Below are positions 2,155 to 39,814 of a stretch of 64,000 bases of DNA, piece by piece (position 1 is the stretch's first letter; each line of letters begins with the position of its first letter). The translations under genes and the position numbers were made by a program. This stretch comes from an uncultured virus (IMG/VR IMGVR_UViG_3300023371_000084) (Duplodnaviria; Heunggongvirae; Uroviricota; Caudoviricetes): the IMG/VR virus record IMGVR_UViG_3300023371_000084; one strand, given 5' to 3'. The notes under the pieces were generated by a model. That model was not told the DNA's origin. It did not search any database and worked only from the letters and a program-made list of their open reading frames with translations.

Positions 2155-2179
2155 ACGTTCCTCGTTTCATTTGACATTG

Positions 2180-2252
2180 AACCGCGCACGGGGATCGAAC
2201 CCGCAGCTCCGCCTAGAAATAAGCGGCGACTTAACCTTTTGTCCAACGCAGT
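2180..2252 (-). tRNA. degenerate Glu-like tRNA with 8-nt anticodon loop
   Basis: Acceptor ACTGCGT/GCGCGGT, Glu-type D-arm GGACAAAAGGTTAAGTC, T-arm GCGGGTTCGATCCCCGT, loop TATTTCTA. Confidence 0.5.
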
Positions 2253-3127: not shown

Positions 3128-4222
3128 CTATATTTTACCACCTTTAGAATGATCTGTCAATACTTTTTCCGCTTTATTTTTAAATTCTTTTTTTACTTCT
3201 GAAAACAGTGATGACACATACTCATCCATGCTGCACAGAAGACGATAGCAGTTTCCATGCGAAGCATGGTTTTTCCAGCTCTGATAGGTTTCTTCAAACT
3301 TCTCCATGGTCATCCGGCCATCGATGACAAGTTTGGCATACTTTTTCAGGCGCTTTTTGATCTGACGCTTATTTTCCCCTGTGAGTTTTCTGATCACCTT
3401 GCCATCGGTTGTCACATACGTATGGAAACCAAGAAAGCGAATACCTTTGGACATTGGAACGATTTCTGTCTTATTATTGAGAGAAAGCTTTAAACCGTCC
3501 AGATATACCTTTATCCTTTTCAGGCACTCTTTCAGATACTCCCTATCATCCGATATCAGGTAGAAATCATCCATATACCTTCCATAGTATTTACAGCCAA
3601 GCCCTTCGGTGATGAAATGATCCATCCCATCCAGATACATAAGCGCAAAGACCTGACTGGATTGATTGCCAAGCGGCAAGCCGTCGCCCTCCACGCTGTC
3701 TATGAACAAATCACATATCCACTGGATGCCCGGATCGTCGAAATACTGCCGGACGCAGCGCTTCATCACATCATGGTTGATGCTATAAAAGAACTTCGTG
3801 ATATCACATTTGAGAATATATCCTTTGGTTCCATGCTCACCATAAAAGGAAAGCATGTTCTGCGACAACCGATCTAGGCCGAACAGCGTGCCTTTGCCAA
3901 TCTGCCCCGCATAATTGTCTAGGATGAAGACATTCTTCATCTTAGGCAGCAGGACTTGATCGCAAAGACAATGCTGCAAAACCTTATCTTTGAAAGCGCC
4001 GGACTTGACAACTCTGCGTTTCGGCTCAGAGATGATAAACTCCTGATAAGGCGAGACCTTATATGTATGAGCAATCAATTGGCGCTTCATGACATAGAGG
4101 TATTCCAGCGCCATGACACTGAACTTTACCGCGCTATTCCGCTTACCCTTACCCTTCATGGACGAGCGATAGGCGCGATACAGGTTTTCAAAATCCGTCA
4201 GCTTTTCAAAGTCAGTCATCAA
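3128..4222 (-). CDS. DGR reverse transcriptase
   Basis: RYMDD catalytic motif, GLPLGNQSSQ (DGR-type SQ), KCDITKFF, FLGF; next to TR and avd. Confidence 0.95.
   Translation of the reverse strand: MMTDFEKLTDFENLYRAYRSSMKGKGKRNSAVKFSVMALEYLYVMKRQLIAHTYKVSPYQEFIISEPKRRVVKSGAFKDKVLQHCLCDQVLLPKMKNVFILDNYAGQIGKGTLFGLDRLSQNMLSFYGEHGTKGYILKCDITKFFYSINHDVMKRCVRQYFDDPGIQWICDLFIDSVEGDGLPLGNQSSQVFALMYLDGMDHFITEGLGCKYYGRYMDDFYLISDDREYLKECLKRIKVYLDGLKLSLNNKTEIVPMSKGIRFLGFHTYVTTDGKVIRKLTGENKRQIKKRLKKYAKLVIDGRMTMEKFEETYQSWKNHASHGNCYRLLCSMDEYVSSLFSEVKKEFKNKAEKVLTDHSKGGKI
3132..3160 (-). promoter_or_regulatory. sigma-A promoter TTGACA-17-TAAAAT
   Basis: Consensus elements plus A-rich upstream tract shared with the phage promoter family; overlaps RT 3' end. 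Confidence 0.75.
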
Positions 4223-4330
4223 AACATTTGTATTTATCCCACGTTGCCGTGAGAAGGGTTATGCGCTCTTTTGATGTGGAGCACTCCTCGTAATTGCACA
4301 AGCAATTTACAGACCTCGCTTATCCACCAG

Positions 4331-4413
4331 AACGGGCGCACGCCGCCATTCTCATTGTCGCAGTAGTTCCAGTTCAGAACACCGTTGGAGTTCACGTTGC
4401 AGACGTTGCGGGC
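4331..4413 (-). repeat. DGR template repeat (TR)
   Basis: 83 bp aligned to 4850-4932; 14 mismatches, 13 at TR adenines (coding strand); AAC-rich. Confidence 0.95.
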
Positions 4414-4442
4414 GCATCAGCGCATAGCCCAAGGAATAATTC

Positions 4443-4808
4443 TCATTTGCTGCGAAGAGACAGGGACATATACTTGATTTCATTGACCAGCTTTGTCCAC
4501 TCTTCGCTGCGGGCAAAGCTAATCCGTTGCGCATAGACGCAGTATTTTACAAGGCTCATCAACTTATTGCACTTGGTTATTGCGCTGGTGAGCAATTCGT
4601 TACGCTTGACCTTCTGATACGAAATATCGGTTCGATACGCATTTGCATCTAAAAGATCGCTATGAATATCAAGTGCGTATTCCTGCATACGGTCGGCCAA
4701 GCGCCTGAATTTTACAGGGAAATGATTCCTGTTGTTGGTTTCATCAAATACAGAGAAGTATAGTTTTTCTGCCTTATCTCCAAGATGAAACCGGAGTTCG
4801 TCATCCAT
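4443..4808 (-). CDS. avd: DGR accessory variability determinant (Avd-like four-helix bundle)
   Basis: 121 aa helical basic protein between target and TR, with C-terminal W..LV.EI pattern. Confidence 0.8.
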   Translation of the reverse strand: MDDELRFHLGDKAEKLYFSVFDETNNRNHFPVKFRRLADRMQEYALDIHSDLLDANAYRTDISYQKVKRNELLTSAITKCNKLMSLVKYCVYAQRISFARSEEWTKLVNEIKYMSLSLRSK

Positions 4809-4812
4809 GATT

Positions 4813-5433
4813 TTACTCAGATACCAAGACGGAAGAATTCAGGATGCAAAACGGGCGCACGCCGCCATTCCCATCGTCGCAGCCGTCCCAGCCCAGAACA
4901 CCGAAGGAGCCCACGCAGCAGACGCTGCGGGCATAATCCTTCACATCATAGCTCACACGGGTAGCCAGCCACCACCACTTGCCATAGGCCGGAAGATACT
5001 CACGATAGCGGCGATACTGCTCCGTAGTCAGCAGAGATACCTTGTCCTGAGACTTTACACTCTTACCCGTACCATCGTCCGCCTCCAGCTTCACGGTATG
5101 CGTGATGATGTTTTCCTTGCCAACGGCCTTGCAAAGCTCATCATAGAAGGTGGTGTCTAGATATGCGCGAACCTTGCTGGTAATCCAATTACCGTCAGAA
5201 CCGAATTCCATCTGCTTCACGAAGTCCTTGGCGATCACGGCAGTCGTCTCAAGAGAATGATCGAGAATGATATACTCGCGGTTGCCAATCTTCACGACGC
5301 TGCCACGCGCAAAGGAGCCAAGCTGCTTGCCCTTCTGCTTTTCGACAAGCATGATGGCGAAGCTGCCGTCCTCGTTCTTATTGACGGTTACGCTGATGCC
5401 GGGGACGTTGTTGATCACATTGATTTCGTTCAT
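4813..5433 (-). CDS. DGR target protein, C-type-lectin-like fold (DUF6273-like), ~206 aa
   Basis: Start MNEINV with AAGGA RBS; WWWL motif and C-terminal GGVRPF; contains VR. Confidence 0.85.
   Translation of the reverse strand: MNEINVINNVPGISVTVNKNEDGSFAIMLVEKQKGKQLGSFARGSVVKIGNREYIILDHSLETTAVIAKDFVKQMEFGSDGNWITSKVRAYLDTTFYDELCKAVGKENIITHTVKLEADDGTGKSVKSQDKVSLLTTEQYRRYREYLPAYGKWWWLATRVSYDVKDYARSVCCVGSFGVLGWDGCDDGNGGVRPFCILNSSVLVSE
4850..4932 (-). repeat. DGR variable repeat (VR)
   Basis: Adenine-specific variant of TR at the 3' end of the target gene. Confidence 0.95.
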
Positions 5434-5479: not shown

Positions 5480-5508
5480 AGTATATAGCATTTTGCCATT
5501 CTTGTCAA
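5480..5508 (-). promoter_or_regulatory. sigma-A promoter TTGACA-17-TATACT for the DGR operon
   Basis: Consensus elements with GAAAAAGTA upstream tract. Confidence 0.75.
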
Positions 5509-5536
5509 TACTTTTTCTGCTTTATTTTTAAAATAT

Positions 5537-6979
5537 TTAGAAAGGCATATCATTTGCCTCTTCCACCTTTTCAGGAGACTTGCCCTTCTTGCGCTTCTTC
5601 GCCTTTTTCTCTTCTTGATCAATAAACTTATCGGACAGAGCAATATTTCTTGCGGCATTAAAGTCTGCATTCACGCCATGCTTAAAATCATGAGACGGAC
5701 ACAGAGGATTCTTGCAAACAAATTCCGCCTGAGAAATACGCTGGCCGGGTTTATCGCTACCACAGAAGGAGCAATTTTGAGAAGTATAGGCCGGATTGAC
5801 ATACCTGACAGTGATGCCGACCTGTTCCGCTTTATAGGAAATGAACTGCTGCAACTGGTAGATCGACCAGCCCTTCAGGATATGGCGCTTCTTATCCTCA
5901 TCAGAGAAGCTTGACAAATCCTCCATATGGATATACTTGGCGCGATTGGCAAGCGCAAAGCGGATAACCTCGCGGCTGACATGGTGATTATACGTTTCAG
6001 CAAAGTGTTTTTCGTACTCCTTCAGCCTATCCAAACCCTCCAGCTTGCGCTTTCGGCCATGACCGCCCTTGGCAAGCGTCATGCGCTTTTGCAGACGCTT
6101 GTGCCTATCCTTAATCTCTTTGCGCTTATCGAGGAAGTCATCGTCTTCACCAATCAGATTCTTTTTACCCATGTATATGCTATTATTCAGCGCAACAGCA
6201 GCGGGTACAGCCTCGCCAAGATCCACGCCGACAACAGTTTCCTCATCCAGCTCATAGGAGCGCTTTGGAATCTTCAAGGTGAGATTGAGCACGATTTCTC
6301 GCTTCTTCTTTGCATCCTTATCCTTGCCGGATGGATCACGCGCCTGCTTGGTTTCCCTGAACCCGATAGAGGACTGCACCACCTTATAAGTTCCATCGAA
6401 AATACGCTCAAACGTCATGCGCAGATCGCTGGAATTCGCTCCCGGCGTACCGATATCGCAATTAAATACGATGCCATTGACAAACTTCATTTCGATCTTG
6501 CACTTGCTGGTGAAAAGATTTTGCTTAAACTCCTCATGAGAAGAAAAGTTATGGGAAAACTGCATGAATCGACTTTCCACCAAGAGCGGCGCATTGCGCT
6601 TGCGATTCTGCAAAGAACGCTCGCCTTTTAGAAGACCTGCTTTGATGGCTGCGGCCATATCCTTTTTAAGCCTTTGGCAAACCGTACTTGGAACAACCAA
6701 TCCAACCGGAAATTTAAATTCATCATACGGGAAGATACTATACTCAGGATCATCTTCCTTTGGAGTTCTTTGTATACGGTCATAAATTCTCTTAATTTCT
6801 TCTTTTGTTTTTCGACTTTGAATAGCCGAATAGACGACAGATGCAGCGTAATTATATGCGCGATTCTGCGACCACATTGCATCATCGATATATTTAAATG
6901 TCCTGTCCACTTCATCCTTCGGATAAAGTGTCAATTTCTTTACAATAATACTCTGATTTTCAAATTCGTTCTTTTTCAT
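5537..6979 (-). CDS. cas12f: Cas12f/TnpB-family RNA-guided nuclease (480 aa)
   Basis: RuvC-I VGVDLG, RuvC-II IHMEDL, zinc finger CSFC...CKNPLC, RuvC-III NADFNAARNIA; adjacent CRISPR array. Confidence 0.88.
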   Translation of the reverse strand: MKKNEFENQSIIVKKLTLYPKDEVDRTFKYIDDAMWSQNRAYNYAASVVYSAIQSRKTKEEIKRIYDRIQRTPKEDDPEYSIFPYDEFKFPVGLVVPSTVCQRLKKDMAAAIKAGLLKGERSLQNRKRNAPLLVESRFMQFSHNFSSHEEFKQNLFTSKCKIEMKFVNGIVFNCDIGTPGANSSDLRMTFERIFDGTYKVVQSSIGFRETKQARDPSGKDKDAKKKREIVLNLTLKIPKRSYELDEETVVGVDLGEAVPAAVALNNSIYMGKKNLIGEDDDFLDKRKEIKDRHKRLQKRMTLAKGGHGRKRKLEGLDRLKEYEKHFAETYNHHVSREVIRFALANRAKYIHMEDLSSFSDEDKKRHILKGWSIYQLQQFISYKAEQVGITVRYVNPAYTSQNCSFCGSDKPGQRISQAEFVCKNPLCPSHDFKHGVNADFNAARNIALSDKFIDQEEKKAKKRKKGKSPEKVEEANDMPF

Positions 6980-7000
6980 ATATTCCTTTATTTATCTTTC

Positions 7001-7278
7001 ATAGACCAGTCAAACGCCTCGACACAAAAGTCTATCCACAAAAGTGCTTGGTAACTGTGTAACCTTGTAGACTAGTCAAACAAGAAACAAGGGTATTATC
7101 ACTGATCAGCAGCTTGGTAACTGTGTTACCTTATAGACTAGTCAAACGCAAAGCACGGCCAGAACTGCCATAGTAAGCTTGGTAACTGTGTTACCTAATA
7201 GACTAGTCAAACGCTGAGAGTGGCAATCAAAGACTTCCTCTTGCTTGGTAACTGTGTTACCTAATAGACTAGTCAAAC
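7001..7278 (-). CRISPR. mini CRISPR array: 4 full 36-bp repeats + partial trailer, 4 spacers (30,30,29,30 bp)
   Basis: Repeats at 7046, 7112, 7177, 7243 (minus consensus GTTTGACTAGTCTATTAGGTAACACAGTTACCAAGC); partial at 7001-7015; degeneration increases leftwards, so the leader is on the right. Confidence 0.95.
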
Positions 7279-7439
7279 CTCAAATCCAGTTACCCAGCAA
7301 CCGTTGTAACACAGTTTTTCGTGAGTGGATCGCCGTCGAATGCTTTGTGATTCAGTCGCGTCCCTCACGTTGCGGCCTCTCAAGTAGGCCGAACGCATTT
7401 CTGCGATTTTGAAACCCTACTCAGTAGGGTTTACGATTA
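7279..7439 (-). ncRNA. leader/tracrRNA-like scaffold
   Basis: Anti-repeats at 7287-7298 (11/12) and 7306-7316 (11/11); hairpins CGGCCT..AGGCCG and AAACCCTAC..GTAGGGTTT. Confidence 0.7.
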
Positions 7440-7538
7440 TCAGTTTCCTTTACCGGACACAAACAGCGCCGTAAAGAGAACAGACAGAACAATCGTCACC
7501 GGAAGAATCCAGAGAAGATGCAAGGCATTCATCATCAT
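7440..7538 (-). CDS. small membrane peptide (32 aa)
   Basis: GGAGGG RBS; MMMNALHLLWILPVTIVLSVLFTALFVSGKGN; overlaps folD stop. Confidence 0.5.
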   Translation of the reverse strand: MMMNALHLLWILPVTIVLSVLFTALFVSGKGN

Positions 7539-8419
7539 GGGCGTACCCTCCGATAACGGCGGACATGCTGACCTTCGCCGCTTTGAAGCTGATACGCCTT
7601 AACGACATTGCGCATGAGCTGCGCCGTCGTCAGCAAGCCAACTCCGCCCGGAACGGACGAAACAAGCGCCTCCGTATCCTTCAGATCGTCCGCCTTGATA
7701 TCGCCGCAAAGCTTTCCGGCTTCATCACGATTCATGCCCACGTCAAACCACATCTGCGCACAGGAAGACGCGATATCGTGATCTTCATTGCACAGGAACA
7801 TCGGCTTGCCAACGGCAGACACCACAATATCCGCATTCTTCAAATGTTCTTCAAGGCGCACCGTCCTGCTATGACACAGAGTAACAGTTGCATGCCTATC
7901 CATCATGAGCTTTGCAAGCGGCTTTCCCACAAGATCGCTGCGGCCAATGATGGTGACATTCTTTCCGGCCAGACTATCCGGCAGCATATACATGATACCC
8001 GTGGGCGTTGCAGGCGTGATGCAATCAAGACCCGCCCAAAGCCTGCCAATACTTGCAGAACATAGGCCGTCCACATCCTTCTTGTAATCGATCAGATCCA
8101 GCAGTTCGCGCTGATGAGGCTTCAAATGATCCGGCAGAGGGAGCTGCAGCATGAGGCCAGTAACGCTATCCATCCCGTTATACAAGCGGATGACGCTTGC
8201 AAGATCATCATAGGAAACAGCCTGCGGAAGACGGACAATGATGGGCTGAATGCCGACATCCTTACACGTCTTCTCCTTGTTCTTTACATACACTTCGCTC
8301 GCATCATCGCCAACCACCTGAACGATAACCAGCGACATTTTGCCAGAGGAAGAAGCAACAGCGCTCTTTACCTCTTCCAGTATTTCGGCTCTTACAGCCT
8401 TACAATCCATGATTTCCAT
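7535..8419 (-). CDS. folD: methylenetetrahydrofolate dehydrogenase/cyclohydrolase
   Basis: YVKNK, QLPLP, KDVDG, GRSDLVGKP, CHSRT, VPGGVG motifs. Confidence 0.93.
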   Translation of the reverse strand: MEIMDCKAVRAEILEEVKSAVASSSGKMSLVIVQVVGDDASEVYVKNKEKTCKDVGIQPIIVRLPQAVSYDDLASVIRLYNGMDSVTGLMLQLPLPDHLKPHQRELLDLIDYKKDVDGLCSASIGRLWAGLDCITPATPTGIMYMLPDSLAGKNVTIIGRSDLVGKPLAKLMMDRHATVTLCHSRTVRLEEHLKNADIVVSAVGKPMFLCNEDHDIASSCAQMWFDVGMNRDEAGKLCGDIKADDLKDTEALVSSVPGGVGLLTTAQLMRNVVKAYQLQSGEGQHVRRYRRVRP

Positions 8420-8423
8420 TGTT

Positions 8424-8870
8424 TCATCCTTCCCTTGGATATGTCCATTCGATGTAAATATGTGCGCAATCTTCAGAGGTGTTAATCAGATTATACGTAA
8501 AGCTATATCCCTGATCCTCAAAATGTTTTTGGCATTCCTTGACGAAAATCCTCATGGTCGTTATATCCCATACCAAATCACTGCTTTCATGCTTATGATA
8601 ATAGAATGCGTAATTTGAGGAGATACGGATATATGTTCTCTCCGCTTGTGCGGCAAGATAAATCGCCTGATACACCTGCTGATAGATATCTTCCTTTACA
8701 GCACGGAAATCTTTCAGTTCTTTTTCGTCTCGCCTTTGCTTGGCTTCGTCTACCATAGCGCGTGCGCTGGATGCATCAAAGCCTGAATATGGCTTCACAT
8801 CTGGAAGAGACAGGATTTTTGCAGCAAGCTTTCCAAAGCTAAAAGCAGAACTCATTTCTTGCCTCCCCAA
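8424..8870 (-). CDS. hypothetical protein
   Basis: ORF in operon. Confidence 0.6.
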   Translation of the reverse strand: MGRQEMSSAFSFGKLAAKILSLPDVKPYSGFDASSARAMVDEAKQRRDEKELKDFRAVKEDIYQQVYQAIYLAAQAERTYIRISSNYAFYYHKHESSDLVWDITTMRIFVKECQKHFEDQGYSFTYNLINTSEDCAHIYIEWTYPREG

Positions 8871-9166
8871 TACCTGTCAATCATCCGCTGCATACTCTCC
8901 CGGCCAACAGGGTTCATCGTATGAAGCTTGACCGGATAGAAGCGCTCGGTTTCTACCATCCAATCCAAGAGTTTGATGTAATCGCCGCCGCGATCTGCGT
9001 AATCGCCTGCGTCGTGGTCAAGATCGATGAGATCGATTTCCTTTCCATTCTTTTCTGCTGCCTCGATAGCGCATTTAGCGGTATCTACGCTTCTGCACCA
9101 GAGCCATTCATGAAAGCAATCGCCGGGAGCCGGACGAACATCATCTATCCAAATCTTCATGCCCAT
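8852..9166 (-). CDS. cyclic-phosphate-processing receiver-like domain protein
   Basis: KIWIDDVR, IDLDHD, GGDY, HTMNPVG motifs. Confidence 0.75.
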   Translation of the reverse strand: MGMKIWIDDVRPAPGDCFHEWLWCRSVDTAKCAIEAAEKNGKEIDLIDLDHDAGDYADRGGDYIKLLDWMVETERFYPVKLHTMNPVGRESMQRMIDRYWGGKK

Positions 9167-9170
9167 ACGC

Positions 9171-9536
9171 TTACTTCCTTTCGACAAGATGGTAGTATTC
9201 GCCATCGTAAGTGACCACATCATACTTTGCACTAAACTCACTGCACGTCATGGAACCGATATGCTCAACAAGCTCTCTTCTTGTCATATCAGCGCTCACA
9301 GGAGACGGCTTGAAGCACGACCAAAGCATGCCATTGAGGAGAACGACGACGGCAGAACACGCGACGAGCGCAGCACGAACGGACTTATATGCACAGCGTT
9401 TCCACATGAAAGCATACAGCAAAAGCACAGTCAACGAGATTGCGCCGATTGCAATGAGCGCATAGAAGTACGGCCTTTCCGTTCCAAATACGTGGTCTAC
9501 GATCATCATCATGTTCATACTGTTTCTCCTTACCAT
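9171..9536 (-). CDS. membrane protein
   Basis: Two hydrophobic segments. Confidence 0.55.
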   Translation of the reverse strand: MVRRNSMNMMMIVDHVFGTERPYFYALIAIGAISLTVLLLYAFMWKRCAYKSVRAALVACSAVVVLLNGMLWSCFKPSPVSADMTRRELVEHIGSMTCSEFSAKYDVVTYDGEYYHLVERK

Positions 9537-11723: not shown

Positions 11724-12722
11724 TTACTCATGTTTGATATTGATCAGCGGCCTTAAAGAGCGCTTAAATTGCGAAACATTGCTGACTTCAATACCGTAAT
11801 ACTCCGCATGGATCATCAGGTCTTCCGTATCTACAGGATTCCTGACAGAGAGAATCAATTCCTGCGCACGTTCTTCGCCATACTCTCTGACAAGAGAATC
11901 ATAGAAGCCGCACAGATACAGCAGGCGATAATTGATTTCCATGCCAAACTCATTTTTGACGCAGACGATGATTGTGCGATTGATCAGCGCAGCAACCTCA
12001 GTTTCCGTCCGATCATCAAACGTATCTACCTGCTTTGGCCGGATATTGTATTTGAAATACTTCCCGCGCCAAGAGGCCATGGTGTAATCGCCTCTCCATC
12101 CCGGCAGAGAATCCATGTTATGCACATACTGCAAGAGTTCAAAGCAGCGATCTGTTAAGCGAATCGTCCTTCCGCGAAGATTGATGGTCTTGGTCTCCGC
12201 ATCGATCATCGACCCTTCAAGGTTTACAATTTCCTCAGACTTGGCAAAACCGCAATAGAACAGGAGAAGGATGCACTCGATATACTTTGCACGCTCAGGC
12301 TCATAATGACCCTGTACCCGCTGAATGGCTTCTTCTACGTTCTTATAGGTAAAGGCTGGCTTATCCTGTGCAAGACGCTGCGTGGCCTGCGCACCGCGCA
12401 TACGCTTATCGTACCAAGGATTGACGATAACTTCGTAATGAGAAATATAGAAGTTAAACAGGTCACGATAACCGCTGGCGATCTGGTTGAAAGAATTGTA
12501 GTTGATTACGTAGTTCGGATCTTCTGGGTGGTTGTTGTTATTGAACGACAACACCATCTCAAACAGCTCATCCACGTTCATTTCGACAAGCTGCTTGCCG
12601 ATCTTCTGCTCAAAAGCATACACTTCCGGTCTATCGATCTGCGGCCTGACCTTTTTCGCCTTAACAGGCTCCCAGTCCTTATAATACTGGTCGAACAGCT
12701 CCTTCGTACTGATTTTTGCCAC
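11724..12722 (-). CDS. MrpR/YopR-like repressor (tyrosine-recombinase fold, catalytic residues absent)
   Basis: ILLLFYCGF..EEIVNL box-I-like segment lacking the Arg, no HxxR; size and context match SPbeta YopR/MrpR. Confidence 0.6.
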   Translation of the reverse strand: MAKISTKELFDQYYKDWEPVKAKKVRPQIDRPEVYAFEQKIGKQLVEMNVDELFEMVLSFNNNNHPEDPNYVINYNSFNQIASGYRDLFNFYISHYEVIVNPWYDKRMRGAQATQRLAQDKPAFTYKNVEEAIQRVQGHYEPERAKYIECILLLFYCGFAKSEEIVNLEGSMIDAETKTINLRGRTIRLTDRCFELLQYVHNMDSLPGWRGDYTMASWRGKYFKYNIRPKQVDTFDDRTETEVAALINRTIIVCVKNEFGMEINYRLLYLCGFYDSLVREYGEERAQELILSVRNPVDTEDLMIHAEYYGIEVSNVSQFKRSLRPLINIKHE

Positions 12723-21998: not shown

Positions 21999-22101
21999 CT
22001 CTTTTATCTCCTGTTAATCTCGTTTTAGGTGTTGTTTCCTTTGACTAAGGTAATTGTAACTCCAGCTCCATGCTTTGTCAATACTTTTTCTGCTTTATTT
22101 T

Positions 22102-25591: not shown

Positions 25592-28500
25592 GGTGTTTCC
25601 TCCTCACAGCCTTGTAACTCGTTGACTATGGTTAGAGTATAACTCCAGACGCTTTATTTGTCAATACTTTTTCTGATTTATTTTTAAAAGGATTTTTAAA
25701 GCCCGCGATGATGCGGGCATAATGGCTTATTCAAAATCGGCAAGGAACTTCTTGCACTGCCTGACCGTGCGGTAGGCGGCGGCATGCTCCGTAGAATCGT
25801 CAAGCTGCTCTGTTGCCATTTCCAGTATGTCCTTGACATCTGCGACGACACAGGGCAGTTTATCAAGCTCTGCGTCCATCTCCTGCTGAGAAGCGTACTT
25901 GCCACCCTCCTGCGTATAATCCTGAATCGACCTGTAATAAGCGTACTCCTTGATCGCGTATGCACGCCTCAGATAGCCCCACCTTGCCATGCTGCTTAAC
26001 CTCCCTCAAACAAGAACGCCCAATACGGGAAACCATTGGATGCATTGCAGCCCTGCAAGATCGCCATCAGCTTGACGGGCTTGCCCAAATAAAGGCACAG
26101 GAAGCGTTCAACATCCTCCGGTTTGCGATTTGCAAAGGACTGTGCATGATTGCCCCAAACCTTTTGACAAGCCTCATCAAAGCCGTCCCGGTTCCAACTG
26201 AGCATCCTGTCAGAATACATACCATGCACTCTAAGCTCGTTAAAGCCTTTGGCCTTATACAGCACGTACTCATCATAGGAATACGGGTAATCAATCGGGT
26301 TTCTCTTGACGGGCATACCGTACAGATCGAGATACTTCTTTGCAGCATACTCCTGATCATGACAAATCCACTTGCCAAGATACTGGCTTTTCCACATATC
26401 CACAGCGTTTATCCTCCGCTTGCCACTTCTCTGCTCAGACGGTTAATGAACCTCGTCAAAGCGCCGATCTGCTGCGGCGTATACTCATAGTCCTCAATTA
26501 CAACGCCTCGCTCGTCGATCATACGAATCCAGTTCCCGTCGGGCGATGCAACGTGCTTCGCTTCTTCAAGCAATTCGGCCTTGCTCATCGCGTCCGGGTC
26601 TTGCTCGGTGGAATCAAGATAATCCCACAGGATATCGGGTATCTTCATCGTTCATACTCCTTTTATGTGGTTATTCGTCAAACTGCTCCACCAGCATGGC
26701 AAGCGCTTTTGAAATGGAAAAGGCATGGCCTACATTCTCTTTATTGATATAAAGAACGTAGCATACACTTTCGCTCTTCACGTCGCAGAGTTCATGCACT
26801 TCCCATTCGTGCCTGTATTGCCCAATAATTCCGCTGGCAACCACTGTATGCCTGATCTTTTCCATTTGCGTCATGCCTTTCTATCAATAGTCGGTTCCGG
26901 TTTCGATCTTGTACAGCGTCTTCGTGGCCTCGATCTTGGGGCAAAGCTCATCACGCTTGGCCTCGATATACTCCTCCATACCGGGCTTTCCGGCCATGCG
27001 CGTTTCCCAGCTTTCAAGCTCCGCCTCCATCTGACGGATCGCGCGGGAAAGGATTTCGGTATAGGTGATCATGGGTTCCTGCTTCTTCTGCTTTGCCATT
27101 TTCATTTCCTCCATGATTTCTATTTACTTACAGTAACGATTAAAGAACCGGGTAAACGCCCCACGCTCGGAAGCGGAAGCGAATTCAAAGCGTCCGCTGT
27201 CGTACCTCGTATCATTGAGATACCTTGCTGCGGCCAGCACGCTTTGATCGTCCCTCGGAATGCAGGCGCTTTCCAGATAATCGCCGATGATCGGCGTTCG
27301 GATAGCCTTGCTATATAGCGTAGAATTCATGTCGGCTCCCTCCATCTTACCATACTTGAGAATTGGCGTCTAGTTCAAAGATCAACTTTAGTATCTCTCT
27401 GACTAAGGTTAGTATAACTCCAGACGGCACATTTGTCAATACCTTTTCTGCATTATTTTTAAATTTCTTTGAACTTATTTCCCGGTGATCTCAACGACAT
27501 GCTCCGCATGCACCTTATACTCTTTGTTATCAGCAGTGAAAAAGGCATAGCCATCCGTGAAGGTGATGTCGTTTTCGATTTCCAGACTGACATAACCAAG
27601 GCCGTCCCTGATGGTGATGATCATGATTTATCCTCGCTTTATTGTTATTATTTCATATCAATTTCCACGGGCGGAAGCTCCGGCATAGCCTCTTCGCCCG
27701 CCTCGACAAGCTTATGCGCCGCATAATGGCTCGCCCTGCTCTGGAAGAAGCTCTCAATCTCGCCCTTACCCTCGCGGACAGTCTTTTCCATCTGCTCATG
27801 AAACTGCGACACCTGAAAATCCTGATTGGTGCCGATATCGGCACTGATGGAATTAAGCGCACACAGGATCTCATGCTGCTCTGCCTTATTAAAGGACTTT
27901 TTACCCGCGAAAAGCTCCCGCACGCGCCCAATAAGCGCCTGCGTATTGGCGTAGGTCTTCTTCAGGCTCTCGCGGAACTCGTCAAGATGCACGCTCGCCT
28001 TATCTACGAACGGGCATTCCGGGATGCGTCCTTCACCCTTGAAATAGGTGAGCGTGACCGGGATACCGTCTCCGACGTTCATAGAGGTCATGATCTCGGC
28101 GAACTGCGAATACGACATCTCCACTTCGATCAAACGCTCATTACCATAATACCAGTCCTGATTGAGCCTGCGGCGCACATGTCCGCGCTTAATGGTGAGC
28201 TTGATGGTATCGCGGTGCTTGATGGACGAACCAAACAGCGGCATGCCGACGTTTGACGACATCTTACTGACACTCATCATCGCATACGACGGGTGATCCT
28301 CGCGCTCGCCAAGCACATCCCTGCAACGATCTTCCATGGTGTTTCCTCCTGTCTGCAATCCTTATTTACTTGCAACAACCACAGTGCATTCGCGGTTATT
28401 CCGGTTCCCTGTATAAAAATGATCTACCTTCAGGCCAAGAATGACGCGATTTGACATCACGTTTCTTGCTTCTCCTTCTGCAAATACATTAAAGCTTTCA

Positions 28501-34524: not shown

Positions 34525-37500
34525 CTTTAAGCCTCCGGCTTTCCGCTTGTGATATAGTCGCGCGTCTCCTCATACTCCACGATAAACGCCGCTTTTTCCA
34601 TGCCCTGCGTCCACTTGAGCACATCCGCGCTGACCTTTGCAATCCGGCTCTTTCCATCCCGGAAGAACCGCGCCCAACATTCCACCCAAACCGTCAGACG
34701 GAAATCGTTCTTTGTAACCGTCAGTTCCGGCGTTCCGATCAGCTCATCAAACATGATATGACCGCCAAGGTTTCCGCGCACAACTCCTTCAATGGTATCC
34801 ACGTCGATCCAATCGCTTTCCGCCGCAAGCTCATTTGCCTGCTGCACTTCCGCCAGCGTAATGACACGCTCATCCAGCTTGATTTTCATGTGTTGTTCCT
34901 CCTCTTCCGTCTAACGGTCTATCACTTGATCATGAACCGGATAAACGTCTTGCAATCCGTTTCCGTTCCAAAGAACTTTGTCCATCCGCCATCCGGCAGG
35001 CGGATCGTGAAATATCCTTCCGGCTTCAGATCGTACTTCACGCCCTTATAAAGCTTTTCCACTTCCATTCCTCCGTTCCGCCATCAGTACACGATCAGCG
35101 CATGATAAACGCCCGTTCCATCCGCGCCCCACGTCGGCACGATATTTTCCAGCAGTCGGCCTGTAGGCATCCATGTATCCATGCAGAAGCTTTTTCCGGT
35201 CAGGCCGTTAGAAAGCACCACGGGGTTAAATCTGCGGATGAATTCGTTTTCCGTTTCCATCTCGATTGCTTCCGGCGCGTTTCCGTCGTATACGCGATTG
35301 ACGTTCCAGACGATCCCCGGCATAACTTCCGATGCAATGATCATGATTTTCCGCCTCCTAGTGTTGTATCTCCTTGACTAAGGTTATTATAACTCCAGCG
35401 GTTGTATTTGTCAATACTTTTTCCGCTTTATTTTTAAATTAATTATAACGCAGGGTTACAAACCATTCGTCGTTTTCCAGCCTGATTTCCATTATCGTCG
35501 AATTCTGAACACGAAACATCGTCATCGGATCGCAATAGTCATCGCTTGTAAAATGTTCCTCATGGTACACCCACGCCCAATAGCCTGTCAGGGTGTAATT
35601 GATTTTCCGTTCATCGTCGGGATCAAGTTGGCACCACTTTTTAAAGTTCATACCAACATAGCTTTTCCGCTTCTTCATGGTTCCGCCCTCCGTTCTGTTA
35701 ATCGTTCCGGCCATCGTTCCGCCTGCGTCAAGCCGCCTTGCAATCAAAGAAGCAATGGCGCAGGACTTTCCACGCAAAGCACGCGAATTCATCCCCGAAC
35801 AGCTCTTTGTCGATGAATTCAAAGAGGCCGGACGCGCCGCCACGCGCAAGCACTTTTGTGCGCTTCAAACTGAAAACGAATTCGCTGCAATCCTCCACGC
35901 GAACGGTTTTCACGACTCCGTTCCGGCTGACGGTTAAGTGTTCGTTATCGCCGGGATACACGGTAAACGTCCAGTCGGCAACCTTCTCAAATTCACGCGC
36001 CTGCATGTTATAGCGGCGTTCCTGATACCCTCTAGTCATTTCCCGTTATCCCCTTTTCTTTGAATTTGCCGCGCCCGTGCAGCGGATCACATGGGGTGCA
36101 GCTTCCTTGCCCGCTTCAACCTGTCTCTTTTCCGCCCGGTTGCCCGACTTTCATCTTCAGGCCGTTCGGCCTGCCTGCCCGGTTTAACGACGGTTACGTG
36201 CCGTCGGCGGCTTCCCGTGACGCTTGCAGCGTTTCGGCTGGAGGCCATCCAGCCATCATCAGACGGGATTTATTCGTAAATCGCTTCAATTTCCCCGGTT
36301 ACGTTGTTTGTAACCTCTACGGCCAGCACGTCGCTAAACTTTGCATAATCGGCGGCTGCTGCATGGGCAATTGTCGGTTCATGGTGCCTGACGAAAAGCG
36401 GCGGGTTTTTGGTGCTAACCGGGATAATGTGTAGCGTATACATTTGATTGCCTCCCTTGCTTCACTGTTTGATGTCCTTGACTATGGTTAGAGTATAACT
36501 CCAGCCCGCCGCCTTGTCAATAGTTTTTCTGCATTATTTTTCAGATTTTTAAAACGTCTGTTCCCATGCAAGAAGCTTGAAAGTCGCCACGCAGGAAACC
36601 GGGATCGCCAACAACCAAAGGATATCAGGCATAATATGTTACCTCCTCTTACTTGACAAGCTTCAAGATACATTCGACGGCTTCAACGGATGAAATTCGC
36701 CCGCGCTTGCAGTGCTCAAGAATGCGCCGGATCTCAACCTTATAGCCATCTGACAGCGCCGGATTCTTCAGGAATTCGCCTGCAAATTCGACGACGTACC
36801 GCTTGCAATTGCCCTTCATGCTGCGCCCTCCCTTCAACCGACAATCACGCCGCCATAGGATCGCGCGGGCGCTTCTGCCCACTGCGTTTCAATCCATGCG
36901 TCATTAATCGCCGCCGTCAGCTTTTGCAGCGTGGAGAACGTGCGACGGGCGCAGGGCTTGCCCAATTCAAGATCATTGAGCACAATAGACTTGCCCATGC
37001 CATGCGACACAAGCATATTGCTATTGATGCGGCTTTCGACGTAACGGGAAATATGCACTTCAGGCTGATGACGGCCAGTAGGCACCTGAAACGTCTGACC
37101 ATACGCATTTTTGCGCTGCTCGTATTCAGGCATGAACCAGATAACCGCGTGAAGCTGGGAACCGTCTGCCTGCTTGACGATGCGGATCACCTGCTTTTCG
37201 CCATGCGTCAGAAAATACTGCAGATCGAACATGAAGCCGTTCTTGCACGCTTCATTGTACTTGTTAAGCTGCGCCCTAGTAATGCTTGCCATATGATACA
37301 CTCCCATTTCTTAATCTAGCAGGATCGCGGGCTTTGAACCGCCGTCGGCTGCATTACACGTCGCCCGGTATGGGCGGCGCGTCATCTGCATTACAGGAAG
37401 TCGATAGAGGATTCGACCATCTTATACATGACGGACTCCTGATTAAGAACCGTCTTAATCTGCATGATGATCGGCTTGATCTGTTCGCGCGTAGCGCCTG

Positions 37501-38147
37501 CGCACTCAACACGCAGCGACGGTTCAACCACGACTTCACCGTTTTCGTGGCGGTAAACGCCCTGCGCCTCAAGGATCGTAGCGCACAGGCCAGCGCCGCA
37601 AAAGATGTTCGTGATAACCTTGTATGCGTCAAGCGTGCCGATCTCCTGACGCTTGCTATCCTTATCAAAGAGGCCAACGGTAATGATGTGTTCAGTCATG
37701 GTTTTTACTCCCTTCAAGCTTTAAGTGTTGGTGTTTCTTGACTACGGTTAGATTGTAACTCCAGCTTACGCCGTTGTCAATACTTTTTCTGATTTATTTT
37801 TGAAAAAGTTTTTTGCCGGGATTTTACCGTCCCGGCGCGGCTTGCTTTTCAGTCATCCCAGCGGATGCCGTTACGCTCAATGTAAATCATCAGCGCGTCA
37901 ATCATCGTCTTATTAAAGCTAGGATCTTGCTTTGCACGCAGCGTATATTTGCCGAGCATATGCAGCGGGTCTTTATGAAGAACCTTCACGTCGAATTCGA
38001 TGGACTCCAGACAAGCGTTAATGCCGAACATTTGAATACCTCCTGTTTTGACGTTTACCGTTTGTTGTCGTTGACTATGGTTGTATTATAGCTCCAGCAT
38101 TAACGCACGTCAATAGTTTTTCTGCATTTTCTTTCAAAGAATTTTCA

Positions 38148-38273: not shown

Positions 38274-38699
38274 AAGAGGCGCTTCTTTTGCGCCCCTTGT
38301 CAATCATTTTTCTGCATTGGTTATTAAGAGAAATAGATAGTATATTCGTTGCGCGTCGTGCTTTCGTTACCTTCATAGACGCAATACACAAACAAACTGT
38401 TTTCAACCTCTTCACCGTTGAACATGTACGACTGAGTGCAAGACCATGCGCCCGCGCCATTGTCGCGGCGATTCGTTAACATGCCGACTTCAATACCAGC
38501 CTCATAAAGTTCGCGCCACATATCGCGGATCTCAGACGGTTCATGCCAGCCGGAATAACGGGAAACGATGTGATTGATTCGGTTCAAATCACGCTTGCTA
38601 ATCTTCATAACGTTGACCCCTTTTCATATCAATAACTGTTTGGTTGCATTGACTATGGTTAGATGATATCATATCTGTTTGCGCTTGTCAATACTTTTT

Positions 38700-39778
38700 C
38701 GGCATTATTTTTCAGTGTGCATTTTGTGGTGTATTATATGAAGGAATGGAGATGGAAAGTGAAGGAAGGGAAGAAAAAATGTGAACCGCTCAAGCCTATT
38801 GAAAGCGGATTGCAGGCAATGCCGGAACGATCCCGAAACAGATACTATGTCAGGTGAGGTATATTGTCACGCATAGATGCATGCATTGCTTGACACATAC
38901 TGACAGATGATCATGCAGGCCAGCGCAGAAAAACAGGCTGCATTATAAGTCTGTTTTTTGACCTTTTACGGACTTAAACCCGGCAAAGGTTGAGCGTTTG
39001 TTATTGGTTTATATCTATACGACCGGGGGATAGTTTACATCTTCATAACTAATAGGCATGCAGATTGGGGATATACGCGCTGTATTTCACTCTCAGCAAT
39101 AAAATTTCCAACCTCTTCCCCCAAATTCACAAACCCTCAAACTTTGGGCGTTATCGTAATCATCTCCGAAGTTCGTGTAAACACTCAAACTTTGAGCGCT
39201 TCAATCGAAAATATCGAAGTTCCCCGAAATCGATTCAAAAGAAACTCAAGTCCGCAAATGTTGGCGCTTACAATGCAAAAACTTCGGTGATTTTCAGAAA
39301 TTTACCGAAGCATTTTTTGACTGAAACAAAAACTTGTGAGCCGCAAAAATGGAAAATCGCAAAGTTTGGGAATCATATCCTGCCCCCACTATTCACATCA
39401 ATCTGTTTGAATAAAAACGGCAGGAGCTTATCACTCTGAATGGAGCGTCAGCGCAATGAAGAGTGATAAGCCTGAATTGCAGACAAAAGTTTCCGTAATT
39501 TCATTGCGCACAAATACAAGTATTTGCGCGCTGCTCGATCAGACAAGCTGATCTCGCAATCATACAGGGAATTTCCTTTCTGGTTTAAATGGACGGTCGT
39601 TTTTAAAAACAAACAGATACAGTATTATATACTACGTATATATTATTAGACATAAGTTACGTATATAATACTGTAATGCAAAAATATATGTATACGTAAA
39701 TATATGTCTTTCTAAGGAGATGCAATTTTTCCACAAACCGCTCTTCAAAAACCTTTTAAAAATAAAGCAGAATAAGTA
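38700..39778. other. non-coding strand-switch region (candidate origin or packaging region)
   Basis: Divergent promoters either side, 48-bp-spaced repeats, several palindromes, AT-rich stretch. Confidence 0.5.
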
Positions 39779-39814
39779 TTGACACGCACACAAACTGGAG
39801 TTAAAATATAGTCA
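39779..39814 (+). promoter_or_regulatory. plus-strand copy of the repeated promoter
   Basis: TTGACA-cgcacacaaa-CTGGAGT-TAAAAT-ATAGTCA. Confidence 0.8.

Follow-up and report, generated by a model that had tools for sequence, protein, structure and literature searches.

A phage-borne Cas12f module with a tracrRNA-like leader and a type II-A-like leader-repeat junction

The Cas12f module and the phage that carries it

The window considered throughout is a stretch of 64,000 nucleotides (nt) from an uncultured virus of the Caudoviricetes (IMG/VR record IMGVR_UViG_3300023371_000084), and the element of interest is a type V-F CRISPR module on its minus strand. The phage brings there a leader predicted to encode a trans-activating CRISPR RNA (tracrRNA), a four-spacer array and a gene for the nuclease Cas12f, with no adaptation genes. 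Read in the direction of the module, a folD-like gene is followed by a hairpin, the RNA scaffold, the heptamer ATTTGAG, four repeats each with its spacer, a degenerate fifth repeat and cas12f (Table 1). The heptamer, which also ends the leader of one group of type II-A arrays, is conserved in related phages, and we lean towards the view that the type II-A Cas1-Cas2 of the host loads the phage array.

Genes of the integrase family, seven tRNA genes and a diversity-generating retroelement, together with the domains DarA_C and LPD29 and a weak match to a portal, give the window a phage-like content. The stretch is found in 20 metagenome runs from 15 studies of animal (mostly bovine) gut and faeces, six of these runs being possibly the source sample. 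Its nearest virus record by DNA is an IMG/VR fragment of 29 kb without the CRISPR locus; INPHARED holds no close DNA relative and, at the protein level, only a Bacillus phage gene, 37% identical. A scan of IMG/VR with the single protein gave no match to a close relative, while an alignment-based scan returned 80 phage loci, with protein identities of 36-44% and mostly on contigs of 80-190 kb. Each of these has one cas12f-like gene, and most have one to five mini arrays of two to eight repeats, upstream and/or downstream of cas12f and on its strand, with repeats that often differ. The degenerate last repeat, too, occurs in relatives.

The first-pass annotation of this DNA had described a RuvC nuclease of 480 amino acids (aa) with all three catalytic residues, and the open reading frame (ORF) bears this out, the catalytic role itself being predicted. 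D253, E353 and D439 lie in the conserved blocks VGVDLG, HMED and NADxNAARN; they vary little or not at all over 26 homologues and line up with the Cas12f chains of solved structures. Going by the motifs of RuvC, they are the predicted catalytic triad. The protein matches the Cas12f1-like TNB domain of Pfam (PF07282, 2.9e-17), with a zinc ribbon of the form CxxC...CxxxxC, and the Cas12u3 model of PADLOC from end to end (1e-99). The closest solved chains are 8hr5 (3e-70) and 9nzp (5e-68), followed by AsCas12f (1e-35) and Un1Cas12f1 (8e-20). Passages of two papers (PMC13186708, PMC12255294) give 8hr5 as CnCas12f1, while 9nzp is most likely RhCas12f, going by the order of the structure table in the same passages. 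As judged from its sequence, the window protein is thus a Cas12f of the CnCas12f1/RhCas12f clade, and its locus shows these marks of type V-F: a small RuvC nuclease with a TNB zinc ribbon, adjoined by an array on the same strand.

The protein also passes the cut-off of the NCBIfam model for guided TnpB (NF040570, 156 bits against 100), a model that covers Cas12f-like proteins as well, so that passing it is what one expects of a Cas12f branch near TnpB. The layout is not the TnpB one, in which a single guide sits at the transposon end without an array, with tnpA or element ends close by: a four-spacer array is present here, and a Pfam scan of the window ORFs, in which element ends were not searched for, finds no transposase family among the neighbours. 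More than 2,500 relatives are found in the protein database, the best being a 97% twin and the next 54% identical. Some of those in bacterial genomes (L086, L087, L089 and L091) stand without array or motif, and may be TnpB-like copies.

As the first-pass annotation had said, there is no cas1 or cas2 in the window: a Pfam scan finds neither family among 91 ORFs, and no PADLOC family appears in 141 further ORFs of at least 70 aa. As to whether such genes might lie elsewhere in the phage, a point raised by the same annotation, the answer is indirect for the window phage itself. Neither Cas1 (0/47) nor Cas2 (0/47) passes the cut-off in 47 records of related phages, of which 22 have a completeness of at least 90%; positive controls did score.

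What the first-pass annotation overlooked is the role of the stretch upstream of the heptamer. A segment of 232 nt (7445-7214) folds far better than its shuffles (z = -3.7). Over 83 unique pairs of leader and repeat, counting motif-anchored arrays with at least two repeats, the longest duplex between a leader and its own repeat averages 10.3 nt, against 8.3 nt with non-cognate repeats (those differing at eight or more places) and 7.1 nt for shuffled leaders; for 49 pairs out of the 83, the end of the duplex falls on position 28 or 29 of the repeat. Folding an alignment of 16 diverse loci recovers both a GTGAG/CTCAC stem and a helix between anti-repeat and repeat, with compensatory changes in 9 of 18 predicted pairs. 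The scaffold lies 5', the anti-repeat 3', and pairing involves the spacer-proximal half of the repeat, which is the type V layout. What looks like a leader is therefore, as far as alignment and folding can tell, a tracrRNA-like scaffold, and its anti-repeat changes in step with the repeat. A sigma-70 scan of the minus strand finds no promoter-like site at the junction or in the leader.

As many as five separate mini arrays surround a single cas12f in several IMG/VR loci (L037, L012, L005 and L061 among them). The repeats of these arrays differ clearly, and each array comes with a separate leader bearing an anti-repeat and with a separate junction motif.

The leader-repeat junction in relatives and in type II-A arrays

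The 36-nt repeats and 29-30-nt spacers of the first-pass annotation are found again in the window, as four intact repeats, a degenerate fifth and spacers of 30, 29, 30 and 30 nt, and so is the ATTTGAG that it placed directly before repeat 1. The heptamer is not in front of repeats 2 to 5. For a fixed 7-mer at one set place chance is about 1/16,000. The real test of the motif, and one that the annotation had named, is its conservation in relatives, and there it is conserved. The 80 IMG/VR loci and the window yield 131 arrays; after six continuations of split arrays had been dropped, 125 first-repeat junctions remained, 97 of them unique. ATTTGAG stands at 41 of these 97 junctions and TTTGAG at 52, while neither is found at any of 213 unique internal repeats. 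If repeat starts are allowed to be mis-registered, by looking for TTGAG between positions -22 and +3 of the first repeat, the count rises to 75 of 97, whereas internal repeats give 12 of 213 and places taken at random 518 of 16,200. The remaining 22 junctions mostly carry one-letter variants of the motif, which is present in 34 of 54 repeat families.

A set of 80 metagenome loci, partly overlapping the IMG/VR one, gives a concordant picture: the motif occurs at 47 of 75 unique junctions (at 31 of the 52 previously unseen) and at 4 of 169 internal repeats. Quite different are 80 Cas12f loci from bacterial genomes, mostly of Bacteroidota with some Bacilli and Clostridia, where the 5-mer appears at 4 of 71 junctions, with two true junction motifs, both in the phage-like clade. 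This near-absence means that the motif is not a general feature of Cas12f guide RNAs. Furthermore, in the 16-locus alignment the distance from anti-repeat to motif varies from about 7 to about 100 nt and the motif always touches repeat 1, so that it belongs to the array and not to the core of the RNA.

Why this heptamer matters becomes clear when we turn to type II-A. Passages of PMC5382924 describe ATTTGAG as the sequence that closes the leader in type II-A arrays of group 1 (87 of 167 loci), with a GAG/GTTT junction, an element needed for adaptation in Streptococcus thermophilus CRISPR1; they thus confirm what the first-pass annotation had said of the motif as a leader anchor. The format of these arrays, with ATTTGAG, a repeat beginning in GTTT, 36-nt repeats and 30-nt spacers, is that of the phage arrays. 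Among 231 unique spacers of the family 173 have 30 nt, 27 have 29 and 20 have 31. What lacks beside the array is the cas9-cas1-cas2-csn2 operon: this is consequently not a type II-A system, and the resemblance is limited to the adaptation interface.

Of 301 genomes sampled from the Lachnospirales, the order of a Pseudobutyrivibrio metagenome-assembled genome (MAG) that carries one related locus, 20 gave a match to Csn2. The csn2 flanks and one cas9-linked array provided 17 arrays of this order, whose leaders end in TTTGAG in 13 cases, in the group 2 motif in two and in neither in two. Their repeats begin with GTTTGAGA or GTTTTAGA and end in AAAAC or CAAGC, as do the phage repeats, that of the window ending in CAAGC. 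Once two mis-registered or unrelated arrays had been omitted, the mean best identity of 75 unique phage repeats to 15 II-A repeats was 22.3/36. The control values are 18.25 +/- 0.66 when the interiors of the II-A repeats are shuffled and 17.7 with 16 repeats of Bacteroidota type V-F loci. The likeness of the repeats to those of type II-A, on which the first-pass annotation had staked part of its case, is therefore real at the level of the family, as far as such identities go, though moderate; the window repeat adds little beyond its ends.

Cas12f arrays of other phyla look different. Eight loci of Bacilli and Clostridia (L092, L095, L097, L110, L136, L142, L149 and L158) have arrays that look type I-B-like, the repeats being near 30 nt in length and the spacers near 36 nt, and Bacteroidota loci (L100-L135) have 36-nt repeats of the GTTG...CCAAC kind. 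Cas12f lineages may copy the array format of the resident adaptation module; some of these arrays could also belong to neighbouring systems.

Spacers, their targets and the proposed agent of their insertion

The arrays change. Near-identical phages differ in spacers, and two bovine-gut runs from different studies hold a contig of the same phage (5 differences over 316 nt of cas12f) with an altered array, in which one different 30-nt spacer replaces spacer 4, repeat 4 and spacer 3, joining the terminal repeat to repeat 3. No contig of runs X8 and X10 extends over spacers 1 and 2, a gap in cover that is not evidence of their absence. Related phages have some spacers in common and their arrays differ by whole spacer-repeat blocks; nearly every spacer of the family is confined to a single lineage.

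As for what the spacers match, the 26-nt core of two reverse-complementary spacers from related phages was found in one non-array IMG/VR contig. Both spacers match this 28.6-kb provirus record 30/30, on opposite strands with an offset of 4 nt, within a tyrosine-integrase-like ORF, and CCA directly precedes each. The pair (L015:2802-2831 against L017, L018 and L021, around 2847-2877) meets at positions 12474-12507 of the record (G354), where the site reads CCA-N34-TGG; two opposed spacers at one site suggest repeated or PAM-guided uptake (PAM, protospacer adjacent motif). Lachnospirales genomes align with the first 3.1 kb of the record, at best with 97% over 790 nt. The target is thereby assigned to that order and the phages with it, the Lachnospirales being likely the host order. 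Spacer 1 of the window has a 36-nt match with two differences, flanked by unrelated sequence, on contigs of three runs (X7, X10 and X11), and the 5' flank, read in spacer sense, ends in TTCA. The match extends 6 nt into the start of repeat 2 (7207-7212), the places of the two differences within the 36 nt not being given; the 3' flank of this target may resemble the start of a repeat, by chance or as a hint about uptake.

Cas9-guided spacer selection in type II-A leaves a 3' PAM, and the first-pass annotation had seen a puzzle here, as Cas12f reads a 5' PAM. In all three mapped protospacers, which represent three spacers and two sites, one of them from the window array, (C/T)CA stands at -3 to -1 and the 3' flanks share nothing. 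This would fit a C-containing 5' PAM of Cas12f, as in the CnCas12f1 branch; a C-rich PAM for CnCas12f1 is said to have been described by Su and colleagues in 2024, reportedly 5'-CCN. If type II-A machinery loads the array, nothing of a PAM choice of the Cas9 type can be seen in this very small sample. With three protospacers and two sites, the choice of a motif at uptake cannot be told apart from later filtering by selection.

Several other candidates were set aside. A 3' PAM of the form N4-TGG, read in the flanks of the opposed pair, is the mirror of the 5' CCA and is not found at the third protospacer. The one match of the window array in phage records (28 nt, E 0.08) was judged to be chance, and a 41-nt match at 80% in the 47 related phage records is not a protospacer. 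The window array has no protospacer in plasmids. The array of a relative has none in 301 Lachnospirales genomes among the best two candidates per genome, which says little, and all spacers of the family together find nothing on the 28.6-kb target contig beyond the two known matches.

We can now propose an explanation. The repeat would be two-faced. Its 3' half, together with the phage tracrRNA, would serve Cas12f, while an integrase of group 1 II-A would read the other face, made of ATTTGAG at the close of the leader, the GTTT with which the repeat begins, the ends of the repeat and the 36/30 geometry. In the infected or lysogenic host, the Cas1-Cas2 of a host type II-A system, with Csn2 and with or without Cas9, would recognise the junction and insert spacers; the phage Cas12f would then use those next to a 5' (C/T)CA and cut competitors, for example in the integrase gene of a resident prophage. 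A junction kept under purifying selection, the lack of an integrase of its own and spacers of 29-31 nt that turn over make loading by the host's type II-A machinery the simplest account, and on balance we favour it. The anatomy of the module, the conserved junction, the lack of cas1 and cas2 in relatives, the turnover of spacers and one target are observed; who inserts the spacers, and with it the borrowing put forward by the first-pass annotation, is what we infer.

A number of facts weigh against this account. No integration event has been observed, and neither a host nor a host II-A system has been tied to the phage; none of 221 Lachnospirales II-A spacers matches the window or the phage loci, so that no direct link to a host emerges. 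Of five bacterial assemblies that hold such loci, Cas1 is present in four and Cas9 passes the cut-off in two, and neither Cas9-linked array matches the phage arrays well, the arrays of these assemblies being of other kinds or loosely alike; the assignment of phage contigs to MAGs can err both ways, which makes such hosts uninformative. About a quarter of the first-repeat junctions show the motif in variant form only. Arrays were called by a heuristic, and some junctions are out of register. The best II-A match of the window repeat, 21/36, is reached by 63 of 1000 interior shuffles and is not significant alone, so that what the first-pass annotation expected of the repeat is weakly seen in the window itself. 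Finally, the three protospacers from two sites share a 5' motif and no 3' motif: the hand of Cas9 is not visible in them.

That last point invites a bolder form of the same account, in which a clade of gut and rumen phages would run a chimeric CRISPR with Cas12f replacing Cas9 as PAM reader during uptake. This would explain both why 5' (C/T)CA abuts three protospacers out of three and why opposed spacers are found at one doubly flanked site. We consider it a speculative and rather unlikely extension.

Loading by the host must also be weighed against other explanations. The junction might be a relic of capture, the first array having been copied from a host type II-A locus, the junction kept for another reason at the level of DNA, for instance as a promoter or binding site for array expression, and the spacers changed by recombination between phages. 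The moderate similarity of the repeats, concentrated at their ends, is in keeping with such a history, as are shared spacers, arrays differing by whole blocks and the want of any adaptation event caught in the act. A relic should decay, however, and the motif persists in 34 of 54 repeat families while leader and repeat interior diverge; spacer lengths stay within 29-31 nt, nearly all spacers are lineage-specific, and the sigma-70 scan of the minus strand saw nothing promoter-like either at the junction or within the leader. We hold this history to be improbable, if worth keeping in mind. Somewhat less credible still is that TTTGAG/GTTT acts at the level of RNA, as a processing or termination site between the tracrRNA and the first CRISPR RNA, without relation to integration. 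It is true that the motif lies in the loop of a hairpin formed in cis by tracrRNA and repeat, where a host RNase could need a fixed sequence. Yet bacterial Cas12f loci with the same leader-tracrRNA layout are without it (two true cases in 71 junctions), its distance to the core of the tracrRNA ranges over about 7-100 nt, and csn2-linked arrays, which have no such tracrRNA, end their leaders in the same motif. Moreover, according to passages of PMC13186708, engineered Cas12f guides swap this region for a tetraloop, which indicates that the effector does not need it.

Two further explanations seem to us more remote. Spacers might be inserted by an unrecognised integrase of the phage, a tyrosine recombinase or Cas12f itself, the likeness to type II-A being convergent. 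Integrase-family proteins are indeed encoded in the window and in relatives, and the exact abutment of all three protospacers on a 5' motif fits spacer selection by the effector, though selection after random uptake would explain it as well. We know of no precedent for insertion by either agent, and convergence on a 7-nt motif, a GTTT start and the 36/30 geometry all together is unlikely, which makes this very improbable in our eyes. To the last possibility, that these are type II-A mini arrays carried by the phage to feed host Cas9, with a TnpB-like passenger as neighbour, we give hardly any credence. The protein does pass the guided TnpB cut-off (156 against 100 bits), some of its bacterial relatives are array-less, and virus-borne mini arrays with host-type repeats are known from passages of PMC11656645. 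Against this, the anti-repeat co-varies with the 3' half of the repeat, in the type V manner, and not with the 5' half, which is the pairing partner of a Cas9 tracrRNA; in most of the 80 loci the arrays adjoin the gene on the same strand; and the motif of the three protospacers is a 5' one. Loading by a host type II-A integrase remains the reading that we retain in what follows.

Neighbouring elements, known systems and significance

The module is set among other features (Table 1). At its left border, a different inverted repeat of 10+10 nt stands in place of the hairpin (7415-7429) in two bovine-gut runs (X8 and X10), and one contig of these runs diverges completely past 7450; together, complete divergence and variant hairpin mark this border as a point of recombination between strains. 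Just upstream lie two pieces of unusual phage cargo, a full-length FolD-like gene and one for a protein with a cREC_REC domain. Just downstream of cas12f is a complete diversity-generating retroelement, whose template and variable repeats are 83% identical over 86 nt, the differences that were read falling at T of the plus strand (A of the coding strand). The window has nine copies of a promoter-like motif of about 50 nt, made of an A-rich block, TTGACA, about 17 nt and a TATAAT-like box; one begins right after the cas12f stop, none lies upstream of the tracrRNA and array, and copies are also present in the nearest virus record. Further away are a match to the type-P5 twister ribozyme, a large protein matching the eukaryote-type RNA-dependent RNA polymerase family, to whose fold RNA polymerases of crAss-like phages are related, and, amid four normal tRNA genes, a tRNA-like gene with an undetermined two-base anticodon.

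Table 1. Features of the module and of its surroundings in the 64,000-nt window
Feature	Positions	Strand	Basis
cas12f gene, 480 aa; RuvC D253/E353/D439 (predicted catalytic), C-terminal zinc ribbon	5537-6979	-	ORF; PF07282, PADLOC Cas12u3, PDB 8hr5/9nzp
Terminal (fifth) repeat, 3' half degenerate; holds ribosome-binding stretch; abuts ATG at 6979	6980-7015	-	sequence
Mini array, four 36-nt repeats and four spacers	7016-7278	-	sequence
Repeats 1-4	7278-7243, 7212-7177, 7147-7112, 7081-7046	-	sequence
Spacers 1-4	7242-7213 (30 nt), 7176-7148 (29), 7111-7082 (30), 7045-7016 (30)	-	sequence
ATTTGAG leader-end motif, flush with repeat 1	7279-7285	-	sequence; conserved in relatives
tracrRNA-like scaffold in the 'leader', ~130 nt, 5' end uncertain	7286-7415	-	fold z = -3.7
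Conserved stem inside scaffold, GTGAG : CTCAC	7368-7364 : 7325-7321	-	alignment of 16 loci
Anti-repeat, complementary to repeat positions 19-29	7306-7316	-	duplex search; compensatory changes across 16 loci
Hairpin between folD-like gene and scaffold	7416-7436	-	sequence, fold
FolD-like gene (methylene-tetrahydrofolate dehydrogenase/cyclohydrolase)	7535-8419	-
cREC_REC (cyclic-phosphate processing receiver) domain protein	8852-9241	-
Diversity-generating retroelement (DGR)	3128-5433	-
Reverse transcriptase	3128-4222	-	DGR
Template repeat	4328-4413	-	DGR
Avd-like four-helix protein	4443-4808	-	weak NCBIfam match
DUF6273 gene, variable repeat 4847-4932 at its 3' end	4813-5433	-	DGR
Promoter-like motif	5498-5525, 22071-22098, 25654-25681, 27429-27456, 35404-35431, 36510-36537, 37770-37797, 38681-38708	-
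Promoter-like motif	39762-39789	+
Type-P5 twister ribozyme match	37327-37390	-	41.5 bits, Rfam gathering score 37.6
927-aa protein, RNA-dependent RNA polymerase family	40942-43725	+	PF05183 match, 2e-10
tRNA-like gene	2179-2252	-	ARAGORN; no match to Rfam tRNA model

How does all this compare with known systems? With CnCas12f1 (8hr5) and RhCas12f (9nzp), of type V-F1 (formerly V-U3), the window module shares full-length similarity of the effector, a tracrRNA with an array of 36-nt repeats, and the lack of adaptation genes; it differs from them in being phage-borne, in an identity of about 40% and in a II-A-like junction that the bacterial V-F loci examined lack, and, in its phage relatives, in the frequent presence of several mini arrays with different repeats and their own tracrRNAs around a single gene. 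With type II-A arrays of group 1, the kind of S. thermophilus CRISPR1 (Van Orden et al. 2017, PMC5382924; Wei et al. 2015, PMC4330368), it shares ATTTGAG, the GAG/GTTT junction, the 36-nt repeat and the 30-nt spacers. Unlike them it has no cas9, cas1, cas2 or csn2; a type V tracrRNA occupies the leader, the 3' half of the repeat appears to serve Cas12f, and the flank motif is a 5' one.

Adaptation in trans is itself established, in Flavobacterium columnare, where a type VI-B system uses that of type II-C (in the passages of PMC8092290), and it has been proposed or shown for plasmid-borne type IV-A3 systems using type I-E, whose leader and repeat are like those of the donor (work cited in passages of PMC11656645). 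By analogy, the phage array would be another one without its own cas1 and cas2 that is filled by the integrase of a different system. The proposed case differs in that the receiver is on a phage, the donor in its host, and the pair is II-A to V-F; also, the likeness of the phage arrays to type II-A is sharpest at the leader-repeat junction, while the passages of PMC8092290 describe a VI-B/II-C pair without similarity there. Virus-borne mini arrays, in the passages of PMC11656645, are likewise very short, with host-like repeats and competing viruses as targets; they depend on the effector of the host, whereas here effector and tracrRNA both come with the phage. Already known are Cas12f loci that lack adaptation genes, tracrRNAs encoded in leaders, adaptation in trans and viral mini arrays with host repeats. 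What appears to be new is their combination in a large phage clade of gut and rumen, where an effector of one type is accompanied by arrays bearing the leader-anchoring motif of another type, that of the host. A full-text literature search, whose coverage leaves out most subscription journals, returned no description of a phage link between II-A and V-F.

How phage, plasmid and type V-F arrays that lack cas1 and cas2 acquire their spacers is an open question, and this family offers a concrete answer in the form of a 7-nt docking motif that would have been copied from type II-A arrays of the host. If the proposal is true, adaptation machinery would be used across types (II-A to V-F) and across genomes (host to phage), and a CRISPR repeat would consist of two halves that can be separated, the integrase using one and the effector the other. 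A further matter would then be how PAMs are reconciled between effectors that read opposite sides of the protospacer. The family adds compact Cas12f nucleases, with a probable C-containing 5' PAM, to those known. For such phages, finally, a rule for predicting the host would follow: to look among bacteria with group 1 type II-A systems.

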